DNA from: Candidatus Poribacteria bacterium
GTDB taxonomy: Bacteria; Poribacteria; WGA-4E; WGA-3G
Length of the DNA: 64,000 nt
Assembly: GCA_965205015.1 (NCBI GenBank)
Contig: OZ242029.1
Location: forward strand, 4,384,001 to 4,448,000
Direction of reading: 5' to 3'
The notes below the pieces were generated by a model. That model had not been told where the DNA came from. It did no database searches and saw nothing but the letters and a program-made list of their open reading frames with translations. Below, one piece after another: positions 52,056-63,590 of the stretch. Each line of letters begins with the position of its first letter. Position 1 is the first letter of the stretch. A program made the translations under genes and the position numbers.

Positions 52056-54017
52056 TTAACTAAGCAAGATTCGATAACCCGTGCTGACGCCCGTTGCCAT
52101 TCCAATAAGTGCCCAGATGCCAGCGCAGATCATCTCGCCAAGTACAAGCCCAAGGAATATCGGCCTCGCACCTCGATACATTCTCAATCCCCCGTACCTG
52201 ACGAGACTATACTTCATCATCCAGCCGAGAAAGATTGAGGGCCACAGCTTTAAGGAGGCCCAAGAACTCAGCATTGTATACCCGATTGGATGCAGGGGCC
52301 ACCACACGAAAATCCTTCTCAGCCACATCAACAGCCCCATGAAAAGGCTGCCGCCGACCATAAAACCTGTGTTCGTCCAGTCCGTCCCGGTCTCGGCGCT
52401 AACGAGTACAGACGTCAGCCATCGCATGTCGCCCGCCCCTCCTGTGTACGGCGCACGATGGGCATAGCTGACCTGGAGGACGGAATAATATGAGACAAGG
52501 GTTCCGATAACCATCGCTGCGCCCATCGCTACTAACAACCCCCTCCGTCTGACCTTGACTTCATCGGCCGCCTTGAGACCGTTTGCCACATACGGCATCA
52601 TAATCTCCCGCAAGTCGCGCGTTAGAGAGACCGGATGCATAAACAGCGAGGTCATGGTTGAAGGATTGATTCTCGCCGAACCCAGCGTCGTAAAGAGAAC
52701 GTAATGCGCTGAATACGAAGGATTGACGAAAGGAATTCCGCCGTGAATGACTTGCCATGTCAAGACAATATAAATGCCGAGAAGCACCAGCACAAAAAGC
52801 AGTGCGAATCCCAACGACATTCCCATCAGATGATTGGCAAACGCCAGCAGCAATATCCCGCCGACGAGACCGATAATTGTCAAACCAGCGGGCATCGCCT
52901 CGTTTGCGTCATCGCTTTTGCGAAAGGCACTGACAAGCATGTTTCTGATGTGATGCCGTGCTTTGAAAAGGGTGTAGATGACAAAGGTGAGGCACGCACC
53001 GATTTCCTGAGAAGCGCTGAACGAATACGCGTTCCACTGCACGCCTGGACCTTTGGTGATTTGGAAACCGAGTATCGAGCCGATCAGACATTGGAGTTTG
53101 AAGAAGAGAAAGAAAAACCACAGGCTAAACGATACCTCAAGCGGCAGTAAATAGCTGAACCCCACGATCGAACAATACAAGTTGAGTTGCAAAGGTCTCA
53201 GCGCACTCCAAGGCTGTTCAACTAAGTAGGGATGGGGATTGAATCGGACGGGAAATTCCGGTACGTTAGGGAAGAACGCATGAAGGCCGTTCAACATGTG
53301 AATGCCTACGGGAATGGCAAATCCGACCCATAATACCCTGCTCCTGAAGAGTGAATTTCTCGCGCCCGGTGGATTATTTGCCATCTCTACAGGCAACACA
53401 ACCAGCGGAAAGCTACACCGCTCAATCTCGACCCATTGTCGGCGCAGCAGCACCGAGAGGCATATCACAACGAAGTAGAGGACAAACACATAAAGTGTCC
53501 AAGCGAATAGCGGTATCAGCCATGCCCCCCAGGGGATGGATTCACCCGAAGAGATGCCTTCATAAAAGAATTTGATAGCATTCTCATCCCGAACAACGCG
53601 CCAGTCGGGAATATAGTGATGGAAAAGGGCTTCCCAATCATTTTCGGGTGTCGCAAAATACTGGTAGGCGACAAGCGGGCGAAACGCATATCTCATCATG
53701 CCTGTCGAAGGAATGCCGGAGGCGGCTGCCATGATGCACCAGATCGTCACCAATTCACCCGCCGAGAGTGCGAGTTTGGGAGAAACTGCGCTCAAGATGC
53801 GGTTGCCGATCAGCACGAGGAGGGCCAGGACAAAAAATGGACCGACAGGAAAATGACCGCCAGCGAGAAAGACATTGCGAATCACGTAATCATTGTAAGG
53901 CGCAATCAGACATTCCCCGGCGGCACAGACGAGCCCAATGAGAACTGCCCGCGATGAGATGCTAACAGATTTGCTCGCGGGATTTAAGGAGGTATCGAAC
54001 CGTTTTGACGTGTCCAT
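52056..54017 (-). CDS. polytopic membrane protein (DUF6785-like, putative transporter)
   Basis: About 16 hydrophobic segments; RRQWVEIERCSFPL, WWPLHPIGY, PIFLGLVLGE. Confidence 0.65.
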   Translation of the reverse strand: MDTSKRFDTSLNPASKSVSISSRAVLIGLVCAAGECLIAPYNDYVIRNVFLAGGHFPVGPFFVLALLVLIGNRILSAVSPKLALSAGELVTIWCIMAAASGIPSTGMMRYAFRPLVAYQYFATPENDWEALFHHYIPDWRVVRDENAIKFFYEGISSGESIPWGAWLIPLFAWTLYVFVLYFVVICLSVLLRRQWVEIERCSFPLVVLPVEMANNPPGARNSLFRSRVLWVGFAIPVGIHMLNGLHAFFPNVPEFPVRFNPHPYLVEQPWSALRPLQLNLYCSIVGFSYLLPLEVSFSLWFFFLFFKLQCLIGSILGFQITKGPGVQWNAYSFSASQEIGACLTFVIYTLFKARHHIRNMLVSAFRKSDDANEAMPAGLTIIGLVGGILLLAFANHLMGMSLGFALLFVLVLLGIYIVLTWQVIHGGIPFVNPSYSAHYVLFTTLGSARINPSTMTSLFMHPVSLTRDLREIMMPYVANGLKAADEVKVRRRGLLVAMGAAMVIGTLVSYYSVLQVSYAHRAPYTGGAGDMRWLTSVLVSAETGTDWTNTGFMVGGSLFMGLLMWLRRIFVWWPLHPIGYTMLSSWASLKLWPSIFLGWMMKYSLVRYGGLRMYRGARPIFLGLVLGEMICAGIWALIGMATGVSTGYRILLS

Positions 54018-54153: not shown

Positions 54154-55278
54154 TCAGTCGAGCGGATTGTCCGCCTCAAGCACGCGGCGTGCCGCAGCGG
54201 AGAGCCTGCCTTCCGCCGCGGCCCGTTCCACCCAATGGGTAGGTATGCCATTTGTCCACTTGGCTGGGCTTGCGTCGGGGTCGGGTGTCCGATACGCGAT
54301 CAGCAAACCCCATCGGGTTGGGGTTCCGGGCTTGCGATGGCCGACATGATGCGGCATGTGATGCGGAAACGAGACCATGCTCCCGGGCGGTAGCGAGAAG
54401 CGTACCATTTCCAACGGCTTGCCGGTGAAGGCGTGGATCTTTCCCTTCAGCCAGCCCGCTTTCATGGCGGCGTCATCATCGGGTCGCTCGGTGCTCCATT
54501 TGTACGGAATGCGGTAGAGATGGGCGCCCGGGATGACCCCAAGCTCCCCACCCTCCTCGAGGGTTGCACCTTCTGGATAGCAGAGCGTCCGAATACACTG
54601 CCGTTGCAGAAACTCGGTGGTCAGGGCGTGTCCGGTACCGATCGGATCTTCGACCTCGTACTGCCCCTGCCGATACTGGTGCGCATGCCACCGCCGTCCT
54701 ATTGAGCCCGGCGTCCGGTTGAGCATGTTGCAGTGGTCGAGGATGAAGCGGTCACCGAAAAGTTTGGTGAAAAGCTCCATCATCTGAGGGTGGGCGGTAG
54801 CGACATCCCTGATGAAGTCGTCGTATCCAATCGAGAAAAATTCCGGCATGACGCCCTGCGACGCGTACCCGCGTGTCACCAACGCAGGACCTGGGCCGAA
54901 CAGCCCGTGGTCGCGCATGTATCCAAGCAGTCCTCGGGGTATGAAGCGCATCTGCTCTGAGCCCCCGCAACACGTCGCCAAAAACTCCGGGGTGATGTGC
55001 TCCGGCAGCGGTGGCTGTAGCCCCCGGCCCGCGAAGTCGATGGCAGCCCAGTCGGTGTCCATGACAATCTCATCGTTCATCTGCTGTAACTTCTGCAAGC
55101 TCTCCGTCCACCGCTTGCGGCCAGCATCGGTCAGTATACCCTCCCACACCCAATAGCCTTCGCGCTCAAAGAATGTGCGGTCAAATGCCTGAAGCACTTC
55201 CGGCCGCAGCAGGTCATGCACGCGGCTTGCTGGGACGACGGTGTCGGTTTGACGCCGATGTATAGATGCTGTGTCCAT
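54154..55278 (-). CDS. PhyH-like Fe(II)/2-oxoglutarate dioxygenase-fold protein
   Basis: FFEREGYWVWEGIL, WHAH, YPEGATLEEGGELGVIPGAH, PPGSMVSFPHHMPH...R; visibly higher GC. Confidence 0.7.
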   Translation of the reverse strand: MDTASIHRRQTDTVVPASRVHDLLRPEVLQAFDRTFFEREGYWVWEGILTDAGRKRWTESLQKLQQMNDEIVMDTDWAAIDFAGRGLQPPLPEHITPEFLATCCGGSEQMRFIPRGLLGYMRDHGLFGPGPALVTRGYASQGVMPEFFSIGYDDFIRDVATAHPQMMELFTKLFGDRFILDHCNMLNRTPGSIGRRWHAHQYRQGQYEVEDPIGTGHALTTEFLQRQCIRTLCYPEGATLEEGGELGVIPGAHLYRIPYKWSTERPDDDAAMKAGWLKGKIHAFTGKPLEMVRFSLPPGSMVSFPHHMPHHVGHRKPGTPTRWGLLIAYRTPDPDASPAKWTNGIPTHWVERAAAEGRLSAAARRVLEADNPLD

Positions 55279-55307: not shown

Positions 55308-56915
55308 TTAGTGATTGGCCAATACAGAAGAGCCAACGGTATCAATGGCAGTGCTAAATCCTGGACCTCCAGCCGCCACGTAGCCATCGCTGGCGCCTGT
55401 TAAATCGGGACTGACCCAGAAGGAATATAACTGTCCGTTTGTTAAATAAAACCTAAATTTCACCGGCTTACCCGTTAGAGAAGATACATCGTCTCCTGTT
55501 TTCCACCTGACGAATTGACAGGTCGTATCCTTGCTGATGGGAACGCAGTTTCTATGGGAATATGGTTCAATCACATTGCCTTGATCGCCTAAAATTTCAA
55601 CTTGGAGCATACCCTTTTTTGTATTCGTATTCACAAAAAGATGCTTGCCCTTATTAAATATCATGGGCTTCGTTGTTAAAGATTCAGTCGATAAACCGGC
55701 ATTCATGGACGCAAAACCGTCTCGGCGAAGGATTGCGAGTCCCGTCGTACCGCCTGCATACATATGTCTACCGAGTGTCGGTGATTCTCCCGACCAGGCG
55801 CCAAAATAAAAGTAAATCTTATCCTTCACGACCAAACATCCACCCCCTGCCGCATGGATATAACCCCTATTCCAGGTGCCTTCCTGTCGCGATCCGGCTA
55901 TAAAAGGACTGCGAACAGGTCTATGCCAGTGGAAACCATCGCGGCTATACCCTAACACCAGTTCATTCGTCTTAGGGAATCCCCCTATGGCACAGAGTTC
56001 ATTGGGTGGACCTTTAAAAATTGCAAACAAGCCCAGAAGCACGCTCTCATAGGCAACTGCGTTAACGTCATAGAGCTGAGGTGCGTATCCGAGGTCAGGG
56101 TCCGCTGGGTCGAGTTCATCAGCTCTCGTCCAGAATACCACATCTTCCTTCTTCCATGAACCGCCTTTGATAAAATCCTCGTGTTCGCGATAACTTCGGG
56201 TGCGTCCCAGCGTACGATTCGAGGTCCGAATACTGTAAACCCACTTTTTCCTGAAGGCATTATAGAAGAACGTCGTATTATCCCCACAAGGACCCGTTTT
56301 GACGGGCTGCCCCCAGTGGATACCATCAAATGAGGTATAAACTTCCCCGCCTGACCAGTCAGGAGAACGGAAGTATGCAAACATTTTAAACCTTTGATCC
56401 GGGTCGTCTGTTTCGGGGTCTAACCAGACTGCGACTCCATCTCGCCGATATCCTTTCCTTACCGGAAGGACCCTGTTCGTCGCTGGCGCTACATCTAACA
56501 TGGGTCTATGCCAATGTAAGCCATCTTCACTGGTTGCATACCCCAGACCATCGAACCATCCCGCATGATACCACATTTTAAATAACTGTTCTTCGGCATC
56601 ATAAAAAACGCCGTCATTGAACGGAGAGGCAACCGGATATTTCCCATTATTGATCTCCAGTTGCGTTTCAGGCTTTAAAATCGGATTACCTTCATATAAG
56701 CGTGGGGTGTGAAAATCCCTTTTTAGATCGGTATTTTCAATGAGAAAGTCATCTACAAACAGTTGTCTTCCCTTATCTATATAAATAACTGTCGGGGGAT
56801 TTTCTAAGTATGGTACTGAGATAGGTGAAAGGGTTGTGTCACACAAATTTCGTGGGGGCCACTCTTCCGGCAGACGAATTCCATTATATAGAATTTCTTT
56901 CTCATTATTTTCCAT
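55308..56915 (-). CDS. GH32/GH43-clan-like five-bladed propeller plus beta-sandwich protein
   Basis: RQLFVDDFLIE, YATSEDGLHW, YSRDGFHW, LRRDGFAS. Confidence 0.65.
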   Translation of the reverse strand: MENNEKEILYNGIRLPEEWPPRNLCDTTLSPISVPYLENPPTVIYIDKGRQLFVDDFLIENTDLKRDFHTPRLYEGNPILKPETQLEINNGKYPVASPFNDGVFYDAEEQLFKMWYHAGWFDGLGYATSEDGLHWHRPMLDVAPATNRVLPVRKGYRRDGVAVWLDPETDDPDQRFKMFAYFRSPDWSGGEVYTSFDGIHWGQPVKTGPCGDNTTFFYNAFRKKWVYSIRTSNRTLGRTRSYREHEDFIKGGSWKKEDVVFWTRADELDPADPDLGYAPQLYDVNAVAYESVLLGLFAIFKGPPNELCAIGGFPKTNELVLGYSRDGFHWHRPVRSPFIAGSRQEGTWNRGYIHAAGGGCLVVKDKIYFYFGAWSGESPTLGRHMYAGGTTGLAILRRDGFASMNAGLSTESLTTKPMIFNKGKHLFVNTNTKKGMLQVEILGDQGNVIEPYSHRNCVPISKDTTCQFVRWKTGDDVSSLTGKPVKFRFYLTNGQLYSFWVSPDLTGASDGYVAAGGPGFSTAIDTVGSSVLANH

Positions 56916-56956
56916 TATTTGAAAGCCTCCTTGCCTCTTCGTTCCCTCGGACTTTT

Positions 56957-58408
56957 TTATTGCTCATACATTGGATTTGGGGGTATGCCCTGATCTCTGA
57001 ATCGCCGGTAATCTCCGCTCCGAATGGGAATAAAATTACCGCGGATGCCGTAGATCCTGCCGTTGAAGAGTTTTACCTCGAGCCGCACCACCTTCTCCAT
57101 AAATTCTGAGACGGATGGGTGATTCTTCCACTTTGGTTTCCAAAAGAGATCATCACCCGTAAACGGTATGCAATCTTCAAAGGTATAACCTGGGTGAGGT
57201 TTCCCATCTGGATCTGTTATCTGAACCCGGACTTCCCCCTGAGGGACCTGGACGTTGAGGGTGAGTTCTTCACCGTGGACGAAGAACAGCCGCGTCGTAA
57301 AAGATCCTGGACCGCCCTGCGGTTCAAAATAGGAAAATCCATCGAGCCTTAACTCGTGGGTTAATATTGCCCCCTCCCCTAAATCCGGACGTGCGTGGAT
57401 CTGGGCGTGTTCTCCCTTTGAGGCACTGGAATAGATCCTGATCTTTTTGTCTTCCGTAATGACCATACTCGATGGGTAGATACAACCATACCCGAATTCA
57501 CCCGGCTCGGCGTTCGGTAAAAACGGCTCTCTGAGGGCTCGCTGGAAGTGCAACCCATTATAACTGTAAGATAGTTGACACCGCACCTTCCCATGTATGT
57601 ACTTATTCGGGCTGTCAACAATCGGGGACACTTGATATATCCACAGGAATCCGACAAATATGCGCTCATAGGGGAAAACGGGCATACCATAGACCTCAGC
57701 GGCTGGCGTATCCTGGGCATCAGTCCGGATAGCCACTTCGGGTTGGGAGAAGGTACGCCAATCCTTGGTTTCATAAACCGAGATCCGGCGATCTCCGCCT
57801 TTCGGCCTTGCTGCAATAACGTAGCTCCCCCGGATAGGGTTCCAAAAACCCGATACCGCCGGGTCTATTCCAAAGGGGTGCCACTTGGCATCTTCGATGC
57901 GTTTCCAAGATAAACCATCGGGTGAAACATACAAAGGAGAGTGGCTTTGGGAGCCTTTTTTTACGTTACTGGCACTGACAAAAGCCTTAATCCGCTCAGC
58001 GGCGTTATCTGTATGGGCATCAAAGAAACACGGACCCCATTCGCCGAACCCTTCAAGCGGAAGAATCTGGTGAGAACACGCACGATCTGGGATTTGTATT
58101 TTATCCGATAGGTCTACAATCTCCCATCTGACGCCATCATCGCTTTCGATGGCTACCGCGACGTGCTGCATCCGACGGCCTGGCCTTGCGTATTGCGTAT
58201 CGAGTTGCCCCTGATACAGACACCGCCAGCGACCGGTATAGGCGTCTACAAAGACAGTTGGATAGCCCCAGGAAGGATCGAGATGCGGGTCGATAAATAT
58301 CCCCTCAGTTACTAATTGAGGACGTCCGACATGACGGACGAGGTTTTCTCGGCGATGCAGGTACCAATCGTCAAAAAAGAGTAGGGTCGAACTCCCGTTA
58401 GTGTCCAT
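56957..58408 (-). CDS. paralogous propeller plus beta-sandwich glycoside hydrolase-like protein
   Basis: LLFFDDWYL, ESDDGVRW, SPDGLSW, LRLDGFSY; AAGGAG RBS. Confidence 0.6.
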   Translation of the reverse strand: MDTNGSSTLLFFDDWYLHRRENLVRHVGRPQLVTEGIFIDPHLDPSWGYPTVFVDAYTGRWRCLYQGQLDTQYARPGRRMQHVAVAIESDDGVRWEIVDLSDKIQIPDRACSHQILPLEGFGEWGPCFFDAHTDNAAERIKAFVSASNVKKGSQSHSPLYVSPDGLSWKRIEDAKWHPFGIDPAVSGFWNPIRGSYVIAARPKGGDRRISVYETKDWRTFSQPEVAIRTDAQDTPAAEVYGMPVFPYERIFVGFLWIYQVSPIVDSPNKYIHGKVRCQLSYSYNGLHFQRALREPFLPNAEPGEFGYGCIYPSSMVITEDKKIRIYSSASKGEHAQIHARPDLGEGAILTHELRLDGFSYFEPQGGPGSFTTRLFFVHGEELTLNVQVPQGEVRVQITDPDGKPHPGYTFEDCIPFTGDDLFWKPKWKNHPSVSEFMEKVVRLEVKLFNGRIYGIRGNFIPIRSGDYRRFRDQGIPPNPMYEQ

Positions 58409-58674
58409 GAGATTTTCTCCTTAATGCGTCAGAAATCTTTAGGGCAGTGTTCTCTCCATGCCTTTCGTGGGCTATCAGAAGAATGGATCCGGGAAAGGGA
58501 TGTCAACCCCAAAAGGAAATGCAGCGCGGGATTACAAGCTCAGAGGCGAAGCGGGAGAATGTGAAGTTAACCGGGAAAGTAAGAAAGCGGTGAAACCTCC
58601 GCCTTCTCACTTCCAAAACTCGGCTTATGCGCTTCGCGGAGCATCCAATCTGCCGTTCGCGCCATAAGTTTCGT

Positions 58675-59487
58675 CTATTGGGAAGCCTGCTTAACCTGAC
58701 CCCATGTGGTCGTGAGGTGCCCCAATGGCGACACTGGGAGAAATTCCTCCATATTATTCATGACCGTCTCGATATCGTCTTCATCCAGCTCGCCTTTGAA
58801 AACGGCGACCTCGTCAATGACGCCGTTGAAAAATGAACCGCCTCTGTGATCACCCATGCTGACGCCGATTGCAAAGCCATTCTCGTGATCAATGCTACCT
58901 TTGACGGAGCTATGGTCAATCGGGTTTCCCTGCTGTTCTCCATCGACGTAGACATATCGCTCACCCTTTGTTCTGCTAAAAACCACCGCAAGATGATGCC
59001 ATTTCCCGTCGTCAAGACCTGCGCCTCTGTTGTCACAAACTGTGACAGGTTCAGTCTGCAGTCAGGTCCTGATCTGTCCGCCGCCGCTGAACTTGACTTC
59101 AAACCCAGTCCAGTCTCCAGCCAGCCGTGTTTTACTCATTACGAAACCCGTGCCCGTATCCGTTTTAAACCAAGCGGTAACAGTAAAGTCGGTCTTATCG
59201 CCGAGTTCAAACGCCTTCAGTTTGTCAGCACTTTCCGTCTCGACCGAGGTCCCGCTGCCATCAAATTCCAGAGCACTGCCGAACTTACCTTCAACCCATT
59301 TCGGTCCAGCTATGAGCTCGCCGTCATTGCCATTGGGTGAGGAATCTTTAGCGACATTTCCTTTACCTTCGTCAAAGAGCCACACCCCGATTGCGTCATC
59401 TATGCTCACTTCAGCTGCGCTGAATAACGGAAACGCAGAAGCCAGACCTACGTAAACCATGACATTTATCACCAATACCCGTATCAT
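58675..59487 (-). CDS. secreted LamG-like protein with one in-frame TGA (59062-59064): selenoprotein candidate or pseudogene
   Basis: ORFs 59062..59487 and 58675..58986 are the same frame; read-through gives ...QIRT*LQTEPVTVCDNRGAGLDDGKWHHLAVVFSR...FFNGVIDEVAVF...VSPLGHLTTTWGQVK; AAGGAGG RBS. Confidence 0.8.
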
Positions 59488-59541
59488 TGAGAGTTCCTCC
59501 TTACTTTCTGAGATAGAATAGAAAATGGAAAAACCGTCCGC

Positions 59542-59745
59542 TTACGGCTTAATCTTACCTTATAGTAATGGCAAGATTACCATACAGTTTGACAACCGTA
59601 ATGAAAACTGCCAGCCCCTGCATCAGGGTTCTCATATCAGCATCGGATAGAGCGATGTTGCAGAGGGCGACCGCATTGATGACTCTGTTGAAAAACGATC
59701 CTGCTCTGCGATCCCCCAGACTCACGCCACCGTTTCCACGTTGGT
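59542..59745 (-). pseudogene. decayed 3' remnant of a paralogous LamG gene
   Basis: Translates GVSLGDRRAGSFFNRVINAVALCNIALSDADMRTLM...GNLAIT, matching GVSMGDHRGGSFFNGVIDEVAVF...GHLTTT of the downstream gene. Confidence 0.65.
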
Positions 59746-59764
59746 TTCCAAACTGTATTATCTC

Positions 59765-59793
59765 ATTATACCGAACTCGATATATAATGTCAA
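59765..59793 (-). promoter_or_regulatory. perfect-consensus sigma70 promoter
   Basis: TTGACA-ttatatatcgagttcgg(17)-TATAAT pointing toward the LamG gene. Confidence 0.75.
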
Positions 59794-60130
59794 GTTAACG
59801 CCTCGATTTCGCCCAAATAAGTTAGTTGTCGATTGCAAAGATAACAGGAGTTGACCCAGCAACACTTCATCTTGCATCATCGGCTTTTGCATTAACCTTC
59901 TCCTCCGTTATCATCAAATTAAATTTCTCGTGTAGATTATAAACACCGCGTTCTGCAGGAAACCGAGAACCAAATAGTCCCAATTAGAAAAATTGACATC
60001 CATTGTCATTTCGCTTACAATAGTTTTCAAAGAATTCATAGAACGTTCTTCTAACCCAATTTGGACAGCTGATGTTCCAGCGTACTTAAAAACTGCCATC
60101 CATAAACGTCTACGTATTTAGGGAAAAGTG

Positions 60131-61624
60131 ATGGAATCGACCGGAGCGCATTTCAAACGGTTTATCTTTATCTTGATCGATGGGGCACCCTACGAAATCT
60201 TTAAAACGTTGATTGAGAATGGGGATCTTCCAAACATCAAGAAACATGTGGTGGATCGCGGCAGCTTGAACAAAGCCATCTCTGCCTTTCCATCAACGAC
60301 GGGACCTGCCTTTATTCCATTTTTGATGGGGTTGTATCCCGGCACAGCAAATGTTCCGGGCATTCGATGGCTCTCCAAATCCAATCTCCATATCCCTCAC
60401 CGTTTCAAACGTCCCGGCATCTGCAGTTATATGGGGTTTGATGGTTTGCATTTTGAAGCCGATTTGCCCCTAAGTTCTCCCACACTTTTTGATTTTTTTT
60501 CACCCGTCAGCAATATTTATAATCTGCTCGCCCGCGGGTGTCCGCCCTCCAAAAACCTGACGCGCTGGATCAAACCCTTTGCATATACGTACGCACATTT
60601 TTCTCATCGCTGGCGATTCGTTAATCAGATTGCAGTCCGTCACTTACACAATGCCGTTGAAGCAGGGAACAAGTTTGTGATGTGTCTTTTCCCCGCAGTC
60701 GATACCTTTTCACATCTCACAGAGATACAATCCCCACAGGTACTTCAGACGTACCGAGAGATAGACACCGCGGTTGGAAACCTGGTCTATACTTTGCAAA
60801 AGATGAACACTCTCCAAGAAACGCTGATTCTGATTACCAGCGACCATGGAATGACCGACACACATACGCATATTGATATCCCGCAGCATTTAGACGATGG
60901 CGGCTGGCGATGTTTGCATTATCCAAAAGTCTGGCGGCAAGATGCTGTATCTGCCAGCATGGTATCAGGTAATGGGATGACACATCTCTATTTTAAAAAT
61001 AACTCGGATGGAAAGGGATGGGGCGAACGAACACCTTTCGAGGAACTCCACAAAATGGGTGTCATTGGTTCCTTGATTGAACTGCGAGGATTGGGGCTCG
61101 TTGCAGGACAAAGCGAAACTGGAGACATCATCGTCCAGAACCGAAGTGGACAAGGAAGAATCTCCTGTCACTCAGAGTACACAGGCGACGGAGAGCTACA
61201 AAACGTAACGACGACTTTCAAATGCGCAGACGCATTGCGCTTCTCCTACCGGTTTACTGGGAAAGATCCACTCGGTTACGGTGTGTCTTATGAGAATCTA
61301 TCCTCACGGGAAGCACTCCGTGAGACCTACAACAGTCCATATCCAGATGGCATCGTTCAATTGTGGCAGATTTTCAACAGTGAGCGGACGGGTGATCTCG
61401 TCCTAAGCGCTGAGAGCGGTTATGACCTACGCGCTCGCTATGAAATACCAAAGCATCACGCGACCCACGGTGCCTTGATTGCGGAGCATCTGTGTATCCC
61501 GCTTGCGACGAGTTATCCAATCGCAGAACAGTACATCCGGTCCGTTGATGTCTTCCCAACAGTGCTGAGTCTATGTGGACATAACGTTGCGGTGCGTCAC
61601 ATTGATGGTAGGGTTGTTAAGTAG
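60131..61624 (+). CDS. alkaline phosphatase superfamily / nucleotide pyrophosphatase-phosphodiesterase
   Basis: ILIDG, FPSTTGPA, VDTFSH, ITSDHGM, THGAL. Confidence 0.85.
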   Translation: MESTGAHFKRFIFILIDGAPYEIFKTLIENGDLPNIKKHVVDRGSLNKAISAFPSTTGPAFIPFLMGLYPGTANVPGIRWLSKSNLHIPHRFKRPGICSYMGFDGLHFEADLPLSSPTLFDFFSPVSNIYNLLARGCPPSKNLTRWIKPFAYTYAHFSHRWRFVNQIAVRHLHNAVEAGNKFVMCLFPAVDTFSHLTEIQSPQVLQTYREIDTAVGNLVYTLQKMNTLQETLILITSDHGMTDTHTHIDIPQHLDDGGWRCLHYPKVWRQDAVSASMVSGNGMTHLYFKNNSDGKGWGERTPFEELHKMGVIGSLIELRGLGLVAGQSETGDIIVQNRSGQGRISCHSEYTGDGELQNVTTTFKCADALRFSYRFTGKDPLGYGVSYENLSSREALRETYNSPYPDGIVQLWQIFNSERTGDLVLSAESGYDLRARYEIPKHHATHGALIAEHLCIPLATSYPIAEQYIRSVDVFPTVLSLCGHNVAVRHIDGRVVK

Positions 61625-62008
61625 ACCCGAATCTCACCACGCATTGACAAACCACCCCTCTTCTGTAGGAGCGAGTTGTGCGCGCGACACCTCCTAACAG
61701 CTAAACATCCCTGTCCCTGTGTAAGTATCCCACACATTTTCATTTTTCTGTTACCATATTGCATGTTGATATAACACCAGAGCAGAATCTGGAAATACAT
61801 TAAGTTAAATTGGGTTAGTCTTTTTTTGTTTCATAGGTAAAATTCTCAACCTCATCCACTACTATTTCTCTGTTTTATGCCCAACCATCCAACAGATATT
61901 TTTGCATAAGAATTCCACTTTTTTCCAAAATTGTGTTCGCTTTTATCCCGAAGTCGCGTCACTATATACCAAATACTACACGAAGCACTTTCCTTTTCGA
62001 GGTTTTTG

Positions 62009-63590
62009 ATGAAAAAAGATTATACCGAACTGATCCAACGCACCCTTGAAGGCGATAATGATGCTTTTGCCTGCTTGGTTAGAAAGTACCAGAAGAGGGT
62101 TCACGCGCTCGCATGGCGGAAAATAGGAGACTTCCACATTGCTGAAGATATTACACAAGAAACGTTCCTACAAATCTATCGGAAATTGCCGACCTTGAAA
62201 GATCCGTGTCGGTTTCCGGGGTGGCTTTATGTTATCACCAATCGTCGCTGCCTCGCGTGGCTCCGCAAGAAACGGATTCAAACGCAACGCTTGGAGGAGA
62301 TAGATACAGCAATGTCAGAGAAGACATCCTATTCCAGACATATCGCTACAGAGCAGGCGAAAAATGCAGCGGAAGCACAACGCGAACTTGTTAAAAACTT
62401 ATTGGCGAAGTTGAAGGAAAGCGATCGGACCGTCATAACTCTCTACTATTTGAGCGGGATGACTTATGCAGAGATAGGTGAGTTTTTAGGTGTGTCAGCG
62501 GATACCGTTCGAATGCGGGTCCGCCGTGCGCTGCAACGCTTAAAGAAGCATGCCCCGCTGATTCGAGAAGCACTCGGTAGTTTCCAACTGTCTCCCAATT
62601 TAACTGAGAATATCATGCGTGAAATTCCGCGTATCAAACCCCTACCTCCTACTGGAGGAAAGCCACCGGTTGTACCGTGGGCAATTGCCACCTCGATCGC
62701 CATTTGTATTGTAATAATGCTCGGAGCCAGCAACCAATACCTAATGCGTTTCCAACAGCCCTACAGTTTTGATGCCACATCCGAAATAACGGTGGAGCTT
62801 ATTGATAGCCCCTTTATTCTTGATCTCTCACCAAAACCAGATGTGCGAAATCAGTTTGGAAATTCCGGTATACTTGGTCAGCATGATAGTACTGGTAAGA
62901 AACTTGAAGATATTCTTGAATCACACTTCAATGCTATGGGTGGTCTAACACGGCTATCCAAGATTCGGAGTTTAAAACGTTCCGGTCCCGCACAACTAAC
63001 GCAATTGAGCGGGCGACCTACAAAGTTCCTAGGTATGGTCGAAATAGCAACAGTGATTGGAAAAAAGTCTTATCTCAAACTCGACTTCGGGAAGTTCTTC
63101 AATGAGACGACTGTTCTGGAACGGCATAGAAGGTTGGAAATCCATTTTGAAATCCACTGTATACGATGACACAAGAGAATTGTCAGCAATGGAACTTGAG
63201 ATTGCTAAACAGAGAGCCTATATCACACCGTTTCAGCGAAGTTACGAACAACACGGCGGCAGTGCGTTTAAACAACGCGAAGACGAGACGTTCCAAGACA
63301 AGGAATGCTTCGTGATTCAGATCATTGGGGTAAAAGGTGTAGAGAACATTTTCTATTACATCGACAAAAAATCCAACCTACTTATTGGAATTAAAGCCCC
63401 GAACACTGATTCTACCTTTAACAGTGATACTGTGATTATTCATTTAGGTAATTACGCTAAATATAATGGTGTAATGTTCCCCAATTTCCGGCAAGTGTCT
63501 ATCGGGAACAATGAATTAAATGCCAATTACACTTTTACAGAGACAGAAATTAATGTTACGTTGGATGAGACGATTTTTGAGAAGCCATAA
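62009..63590 (+). pseudogene. ECF sigma factor fused to TM helix and extracytoplasmic domain, frameshifted near 63115
   Basis: Sigma regions 2/4 (AEDITQETFL...GMTYAEIGEFLG), TM PWAIATSIAICIVIMLG; domain continues ETTV / WNGIEGW in ORF 63057..63590 after one extra base. Confidence 0.7.

Follow-up and report, generated by a model that had tools for sequence, protein, structure and literature searches.

A gene for a predicted exported LamG protein of a Candidatus Poribacteria bacterium contains a single UGA within its reading frame, which raises the question whether this codon ends translation, marks a gene in decay, or is decoded as selenocysteine (Sec). The gene lies on the minus strand of the window, i.e., the whole stretch of 64,000 nucleotides of DNA that was analysed, and an earlier note made from the letters of this DNA had read it as a candidate selenoprotein gene. 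This reading is supported by the conservation of the TGA, the Cys found in its alignment column, the coding constraint downstream of it, the hairpin that follows it, and the Sec machinery present in related genomes. We consider it very probable that UGA codon 142 encodes selenocysteine in an exported protein with a LamG lectin fold, which would constitute a new selenoprotein family.

The reading frame and its surroundings

The minus-strand frame 59487-58675 comprises 141 codons, a TGA at positions 59064-59062, and 128 further codons followed by a TAG, and the TGA is the only interruption of this single frame, as previously described. If the UGA at codon 142 is read as Sec, the LamG (Laminin_G_3) coding sequence (58675-59487, minus strand) has 270 codons plus the TAG. 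The stop is located in the peptide ...GGGQIRT-*-LQTEPVTVCDNRG..., with QIRT-*-LQTEPVTVCD as its immediate context, and the base following the UGA (59062-59064, minus strand) is C; its designation as a proposed selenocysteine codon is based on the frame and on 13 of 13 ortholog DNAs. The tryptic peptide across residue 142 would be T-U-LQTEPVTVCDNR. The Pfam domain Laminin_G_3 was found to extend across the TGA (residues 94-239; E value 1.8e-23; 83.8 bits versus a cut-off of 27.6), the product of 58675-59487 exceeding the gathering score of PF13385; the LamG motifs had initially been described as intact. Beyond Laminin_G_3 and a weak Laminin_G_2 match, the Pfam search of this product returned nothing, and the NCBIfam search returned only a sub-threshold match to TafC (36 bits versus a cut-off of 410).

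Candidate signals for expression and export were located upstream of the frame and at its start. Residues 1-25 (59413-59487, minus strand) form a predicted Sec-type signal peptide, recognized by inspection from the sequence MIR, a hydrophobic core, and SAA followed by E; its cleavage site was likewise placed by inspection. A Shine-Dalgarno sequence AAGGAGG is present at 59496-59502 (minus strand), 8 nt upstream of the ATG, and the perfect sigma-70 promoter that had been noted upstream was recovered as a promoter-like sequence TTGACA-17-TATAAT at 59765-59793 (minus strand), which matches the consensus at 12 of 12 positions. Peptide-frame text matching this site also occurs upstream of the gene in one ortholog locus (L004). 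The decayed paralog that had been reported next to the gene is real: translation revealed a C-terminal LamG remnant (SLGDRRAGSFFNRVINAVAL...) at 59555-59725 (minus strand), in the 5' leader or intergenic region. The remnant must be old, because it recurs ahead of the LamG gene in L001, L002, L004, L009, and L010 and, in frameshifted form, in L005. A terminator-like hairpin at 59531-59550 (minus strand), which the earlier note did not contain, lies between the promoter-like site and the ribosome-binding site; it probably belongs to the decayed paralog upstream, as its terminator.

In four RNA libraries, originating from four studies, the gene is represented by contigs that extend across the TGA. 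The 40 differences listed for these contigs all fall outside 59031-59064, another 57 differences not being part of this list, and the contigs may contain DNA.

The two neighbours downstream on the same strand, 56957-58408 and 55308-56915, gave no Pfam or NCBIfam match, and 54154-55278 and 52056-54017 gave no NCBIfam match. In the protein atlas, 55308-56915 is placed near clusters whose automatic name is glycosyl hydrolase family 32 (scores 0.98-0.99), which we treat as a lead only.

Conservation of the TGA and coding constraint

Orthologs were scanned in one genome per species, and a metagenome scan added two sequences, L094 and L095. The genomes yielded 11 close orthologs (L001-L011), which share 88-94% protein identity and are found in 11 Candidatus Poribacteria genome records. 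Codon 142 is TGA in 13 of 13 close-ortholog DNAs, i.e., in the window, L001-L011, and metagenome contig L094. The coding sequence measures 813 nt without an indel in each of the 12 most similar copies (window and L001-L011), and L094, at 77% identity, retains an open frame, the TGA, and a perfect form of the hairpin described below. Public gene calls retrieved with the 141-residue N-terminal piece as query included 15 clusters (P0123-P0137; 141-142 amino acids) that end exactly at ...IRT, the sole named call among them being a "hypothetical protein" (NCBI). With both the ortholog DNAs and these clusters carrying the stop, the TGA is not private to this strain; a private TGA was among the outcomes that the earlier note had named as refuting its proposal.

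The alignment of orthologs, which had been suggested as a check, showed which residue takes the place of the TGA. Full-length homologs of the LamG protein, as found by protein search, have 265-270 residues. In eight of them (P0002-P0009; 51-74% identity) the TGA column is occupied by Cys, and L095, a low-coverage metagenome contig of the P0002/P0003 type with 75% identity, has TGC at this position. One row (P0010) has Ser, and neither Trp nor Arg occurs in the column among the nine nearest non-TGA homologs, so that the replacement by Trp or Arg that would have spoken against Sec was not seen. The Cys-form orthologs P0002-P0008 and L095, as well as the large family of Laminin_G_3 paralogs in Poribacteria, resemble the protein from the window in length, signal peptide, domain, and C-terminal tail; the Cys-form orthologs have Cys at position 142, and the closest of them share the motif IRTCLQTxPxTVCDNRG. 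The C-terminal motif ...VSPxGxLxTTWGxIK is common to the whole LamG paralog family. Cys151 is invariant in the alignment, and its codon (59035-59037, minus strand) is TGT in 13 of 13 sequences; this invariance and its strand position in the structural model make it the proposed partner of Sec142. In the more distant LamG proteins of the alignment, both Cys residues are missing. Consistently, 166 of the 189 high-scoring segment pairs (HSPs) of other LamG paralogs, derived from 146 loci, have Cys at neither column and one has Cys at both, and a stop at the TGA column was found in none of the 189. In the phylogenetic tree, the 13 TGA forms occupy one side of a weakly supported branch (77/32), nested in a subfamily with support of 99/98 that otherwise consists of Cys forms.

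That the TGA is an error of sequencing or assembly has a probability close to nil, since 13 independent assemblies have it, as do the contigs of the four RNA libraries. The same applies to a TGA read as sense throughout the organism: of the 34 stop-to-stop frames of at least 250 codons in the window, 10 end in TGA, which indicates that TGA is not generally reassigned, and the other LamG paralogs have no stop at the column. We regard both possibilities as refuted by these assemblies, contigs, and frames.

Another reading is that of a pseudogene, in which a TGC or TGT codon had become TGA in an ancestor that the orthologs shared recently, with decay ever since; the earlier note had added simple nonsense mutation as a caveat. 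A single base change suffices to convert TGY into TGA, the upstream region contains a decayed LamG remnant, and the divergence of the orthologs is modest, with a mean dS of 0.17 and nucleotide identities of 92-99% in the sequences compared. Moreover, three gene-call clusters (P0011, P0138, and P0139), corresponding to 3 of the 18 related gene calls fetched out of 23 proteins listed, have a frameshift upstream of the TGA, and some records contain a broken or wrongly assembled LamG gene. The 12 most similar copies, on the other hand, are free of further stops and indels, even the divergent L094 has an open frame, and the sequence downstream of the TGA evolves as coding sequence. Specifically, the mean pairwise dN/dS was 0.20 downstream of the TGA and 0.26 upstream of it, or 0.21 upstream if the signal peptide was excluded, indicating equal purifying selection on both parts. 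Parsimony on the 13-sequence tree placed 42, 22, and 73 changes at codon positions 1, 2, and 3 of codons 143-251 (p = 5e-7 versus equal numbers). A neutral model based on the rate at third positions predicts 7.1 additional nonsense changes in the part after the TGA, and not one was seen (P = 8e-4). The dN/dS values, the codon-position pattern, and the absence of new nonsense changes lead us to reject an inherited pseudogene, and with it the nonsense-mutation caveat; we consider decay of the gene very unlikely.

The constraint also bears on the possibility that the locus contains two genes, one encoding a 141-residue product and the other starting at GTG 58986. A 103-codon open reading frame starts at this GTG, and public gene callers split the locus in this way. 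The 14 codons directly following the TGA (143-156), which precede the GTG, are however already coding-like, with 2, 2, and 12 changes at positions 1, 2, and 3. Both the Laminin_G_3 domain and the predicted jelly roll extend across the TGA, and the homologs occur as one undivided protein of 265-270 residues. Re-initiation at GTG 58986 is thus rejected as the source of the downstream part, and an arrangement of two genes appears extremely improbable.

The hairpin and the decoding machinery

In the mRNA, the UGA is followed by 14 nt, the sequence UGUCACA (59047-59041), the loop GUU (59040-59038), and the sequence UGUGACA (59037-59031), whose first codon is that of Cys151. Sequence and folding confirmed the predicted upper SECIS-like stem-loop (59031-59047, minus strand), with a perfect stem of 7 bp and a loop that begins with GU 21 nt past the UGA. 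Folding also predicted an extended helix around the UGA and the upper stem-loop (59012-59072, minus strand). Of the lower stem containing the UGA that had been proposed in addition, the prediction stood for the window, but not its conservation, as this helix is variable and has mismatches in several orthologs (91.7% paired). RNAfold, which had been recommended as a check, gave a minimum free energy of -25.8 kcal/mol for the 71-nt segment (z = -2.59), a value as good being reached by 1 of 200 shuffles. A perfect stem of at least 7 bp obeying the spacing and loop rules of bacterial SECIS elements (bSECIS) follows 11 of the 2274 TGA triplets in all frames of both strands of the window (0.5%). The fold z-score and this low frequency make it unlikely that the hairpin arose by chance.

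According to the legend of Fig. 2 of PMC13188914, the apical loop of a bSECIS has 3-9 nt with a G in its first two positions, the upper stem has 4-16 bp, the UGA-loop spacing is 16-37 nt, and the minimum free energy is -7.5 kcal/mol or lower. The LamG hairpin lies within all of these published limits (GUU, 7 bp, 21 nt, and -25.8 kcal/mol for the 71-nt segment). A scan of 58600-59900 against Rfam with E values up to 10 returned no hairpin family, the only match being a chance snoRNA. An alternative hairpin, CAGACUG/CAGUUUG, can form and is mutually exclusive with the SECIS-like structure.

Twelve of the 13 TGA forms have the same upper stem-loop; in the remaining one (L008), a Val-to-Ala change introduces one C-A mismatch. 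Over 12 distinct rows the upper stem is 98.8% paired, and it is invariant in 11 of them. The one Cys-form DNA in this comparison, L095, has GGCUACA as its 5' arm, with two mismatches, and RNAfold predicts no hairpin for it. The six third-codon positions inside the hairpin show no change across the 13 sequences, whereas flanking codons vary freely, with about 0.6 (0.5-0.9) changes per codon at third positions outside the hairpin; by our own arithmetic approximately 3.9 changes would be expected inside it (Poisson P of approximately 0.02). Across these sequences, the stem is preserved as identical sequence. Its invariance may derive in part from protein constraint, because the two arms are codons of the conserved VTVCD. 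The covariation analysis had too little variation to work with and gave one compensatory pair, which was matched by 121 of 500 shuffles.

The components of Sec decoding were searched in the complete chromosomes of five relatives, namely those carrying L002, L003, L005, L006, and L007. All five genomes encode SelA (E value of about 1e-155), a tRNA-Sec above the Rfam gathering score, a SelB winged-helix domain adjoining the tRNA-Sec, and SelD with one in-frame TGA; ARAGORN reported a tRNA-SeC(tca) in four of the five, and no tRNA gene in the window. The absence of Sec machinery, which the earlier note had listed among the findings that would overturn its proposal, therefore does not apply to the relatives searched. 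The context of the SelD TGA is ...VKCAG-*-ASKL in the two loci examined. In the poribacterial SelD, the UGA is followed by 12 nt and a 6-bp stem with a 3-nt loop, which in L092 reads AGG and is located about 18 nt past the TGA. The poribacterial SelD gene and the LamG gene resemble each other in having an in-frame UGA, a small stem-loop with a G early in the loop 16-37 nt further on, and homologs with Cys in place of the UGA. From the machinery in all five relatives and the SelD hairpin, we conclude that Sec decoding is active in this lineage and that its SelB reads small hairpins. Passages of two publications are in line with this: most bins of sponge symbionts contain SelA together with SelB (PMC5649159), and Sec-containing group 4 hydrogenases have been reported from Poribacteria among other phyla (PMC13582414).

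Taken together, the gene would encode an exported LamG protein with a concanavalin-A-like jelly roll in a Candidatus Poribacteria sponge symbiont. The SECIS-type hairpin within the coding sequence would recruit SelB carrying Sec-tRNA(Sec), whose decoding at UGA142 would compete with release factor 2, and translation would then run on to the TAG at 58675. The precursor would be exported by means of its N-terminal signal peptide, and Sec142 and the invariant Cys151 may form a selenylsulfide across a β-hairpin, replacing the Cys-Cys pair of the Cys-form relatives.

The UGA could also be read through without Sec, either by near-cognate or suppressor decoding that inserts Trp, Cys, or Arg or in the form of a short product accompanied by a minor long one. 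The downstream constraint demonstrates continued translation, not the nature of the inserted residue, and a UGA followed by C is a leaky termination context, here possibly aided by the hairpin. We consider this unlikely in view of the aligned residue in homologs, which is Cys and is paired with the invariant Cys151, of the complete Sec system in all five relatives, including a SelD that itself contains Sec, and of a hairpin that fits the bSECIS model. Insertion of selenocysteine by the bacterial Sec machinery is the preferred reading, and the protein is discussed below on this basis.

The predicted protein and its precedents

AlphaFold2, run with 118 aligned sequences, predicted an all-β jelly roll with a mean pLDDT of 85.1 and a pTM of 0.82. 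Only the signal peptide and the final 19 residues were modelled with low confidence, the pLDDT being below 50 at residues 1-4 and 17-24. In the model, residue 142 is part of strand 138-144 and residue 151 of strand 149-154, with a four-residue turn between them. Since the two strands are joined by this turn, residues 142 and 151 should, from the strand register, face each other. The residue positions of the cross-strand U-x8-C bridge that had been suggested in the earlier note fit this model; the Se-S bond itself, like SelB binding and export, we infer.

A Foldseek search of the model matched generic lectin-type jelly-roll domains only (E values of 5e-11 to 1e-8; 11-18% identity; TM-scores on the query of 0.55-0.64). 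The same concanavalin-A-like jelly roll is found in the N-terminal subdomain of the binding regions of clostridial neurotoxin and NTNH, in the lectin domain of trans-sialidase, and in domain 4 of GH43 arabinanase, and to our knowledge none of these is a selenoprotein. The match to solved jelly-roll domains indicates a binding scaffold of a generic kind, for carbohydrates or proteins, and is silent on toxicity or function.

Selenoproteins are almost all redox enzymes drawn from a limited set of folds. Instead of a thioredoxin-like fold with a UxxC or CxxU motif, a Laminin_G_3 fold with U-x8-C was found, and we know of no case in which U-x8-C in a jelly-roll fold serves as a redox motif. Among bacterial selenoprotein genes, fdhF of E. 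coli carries an intragenic bSECIS. The LamG protein differs from the products of selD and fdhF in its lectin-type jelly roll, its signal peptide, and its U-x8-C in place of UxxC or CxxU, and it does not belong to the oxidoreductases among the known selenoprotein families. It comes closest to the trypsin-like and MucD-like proteases that the GOS study predicted to contain Sec (PMC2398784). These proteases share with the LamG protein that they are predicted to be secreted, have no known redox fold, and would contain Sec in place of a conserved Cys, and in both cases the evidence is in silico, based on Sec/Cys pairs and bSECIS elements. They differ in that the proteases have a protease fold and, in the MucD-like case, a CxxU motif, whereas the LamG protein has U-x8-C across a β-hairpin and occurs in sponge-symbiont Poribacteria. 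The recoding apparatus is ordinary bacterial; what is new is the protein family and its setting.

The author of the earlier note knew of no exported selenoprotein with a lectin fold, and in our literature search, too, no selenoprotein with a LamG or lectin fold came to light, with supplementary lists and BSepDB lying outside the search and a prior listing there being possible. The main texts of PMC13188914, PMC13326102, and PMC12013277 contain none of the terms LamG, laminin, concanavalin, lectin, and Poribacteria.

As to what the pair of residues might do, the protein may contain an extracytoplasmic Sec142-Cys151 selenylsulfide that acts as a redox switch or catalytic pair, in a protein binding carbohydrates or the host matrix, or that serves as a selenium-based structural cross-link. 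This extension of the selenoprotein reading to an exported protein with such a bond is put forward tentatively, as plausible but slightly less probable than not. In almost every selenoprotein characterised so far, Sec takes part in redox chemistry, and by analogy we lean towards a redox-active rather than a structural Sec142-Cys151 pair.

Public gene calls that end at the UGA, and thereby give 141-residue products, would need to be corrected. The close orthologs (72-77% identity) provide a natural Sec/Cys pair with which the role of selenium can be tested. A LamG selenoprotein is in keeping with the reported overrepresentation of SelA and SelB among the genomes of sponge symbionts, for which a functional explanation has yet to be given (PMC5649159). 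With a conserved Sec in an exported LamG protein, one is led to ask what role selenium has on a binding scaffold outside the cell; if the reading is true, selenocysteine would be used not only by redox enzymes in the cytoplasm but also by extracellular proteins that interact with the host.

Remnant of a LamG paralog and a possible former tandem array

The region between the perfect promoter-like site (TTGACA-17-TATAAT, 59793-59765, minus strand) and the ribosome-binding site of the candidate selenoprotein gene (AAGGAGG, 59502-59496) is occupied by a remnant of a LamG paralog, comprising about 65 codons of its C terminus (59555-59800 on the minus strand), followed by a terminator-like hairpin that still precedes the ribosome-binding site. 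This remnant is kept across several species: among the close-ortholog loci of Candidatus Poribacteria, L001, L002, L004, L009, and L010 also have it ahead of the gene, and L005 has it in a frameshifted form. In L094, a metagenome contig carrying the TGA form, one tail sequence is present twice, i.e., upstream of the gene and as its own C terminus, and this duplication suggests recombination within a former tandem array.

Two large genes (55308-58408, minus strand) lie immediately downstream of the LamG gene, encoding proteins of 483 and 535 residues, for which searches of Pfam and NCBIfam gave no match. The 535-residue protein is similar to clusters of the protein atlas whose automatic names are glycosyl hydrolase family 32 or BNR/sialidase-like, and its homolog is the gene directly after the LamG gene in the ortholog loci L005, L007, and L011. 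On the opposite side, the locus is flanked by genes on the plus strand for a type I phosphodiesterase/sulfatase-like protein (60128-61624) and an ECF-type sigma factor that carries a long fused extension at its C terminus (61931-63169).

Conserved C-terminal motif

The motif VSPxGxLxTTWGxIK, located at residues 252 to 270 (58678-58734, minus strand), is conserved throughout the LamG alignment A3 of 118 sequences, in which W262 is invariant and V252, L258, and K266 each occur in at least 90% of the sequences. In the window protein it lies within the low-confidence tail of the structure model; it may represent a sorting or anchoring signal.

Disrupted relatives and other in-frame TGA codons

Three public gene calls of close relatives (P0011, P0138, and P0139) contain a frameshift upstream of the TGA, so that the gene has either truly been lost in some strains or been misassembled; P0011, which reads on in an alternative frame, apparently suffered a short deletion within a CTGG repeat. 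Another poribacterial LamG paralog (L073, 6568-6648) likewise contains an in-frame TGA (GGCGV-*-DAGG). As the related protein P0016 reads GGCGIFDGSG there and the column is not Sec/Cys, this TGA probably arose by a nonsense change or by error.

Poribacterial SelD itself carries an in-frame TGA (VKCAG-*-ASKL; locus L092 of genome G003 and L093 of G002), and in L092 a small hairpin with a loop of 3 nt comes after it, a useful SECIS reference specific to this lineage.
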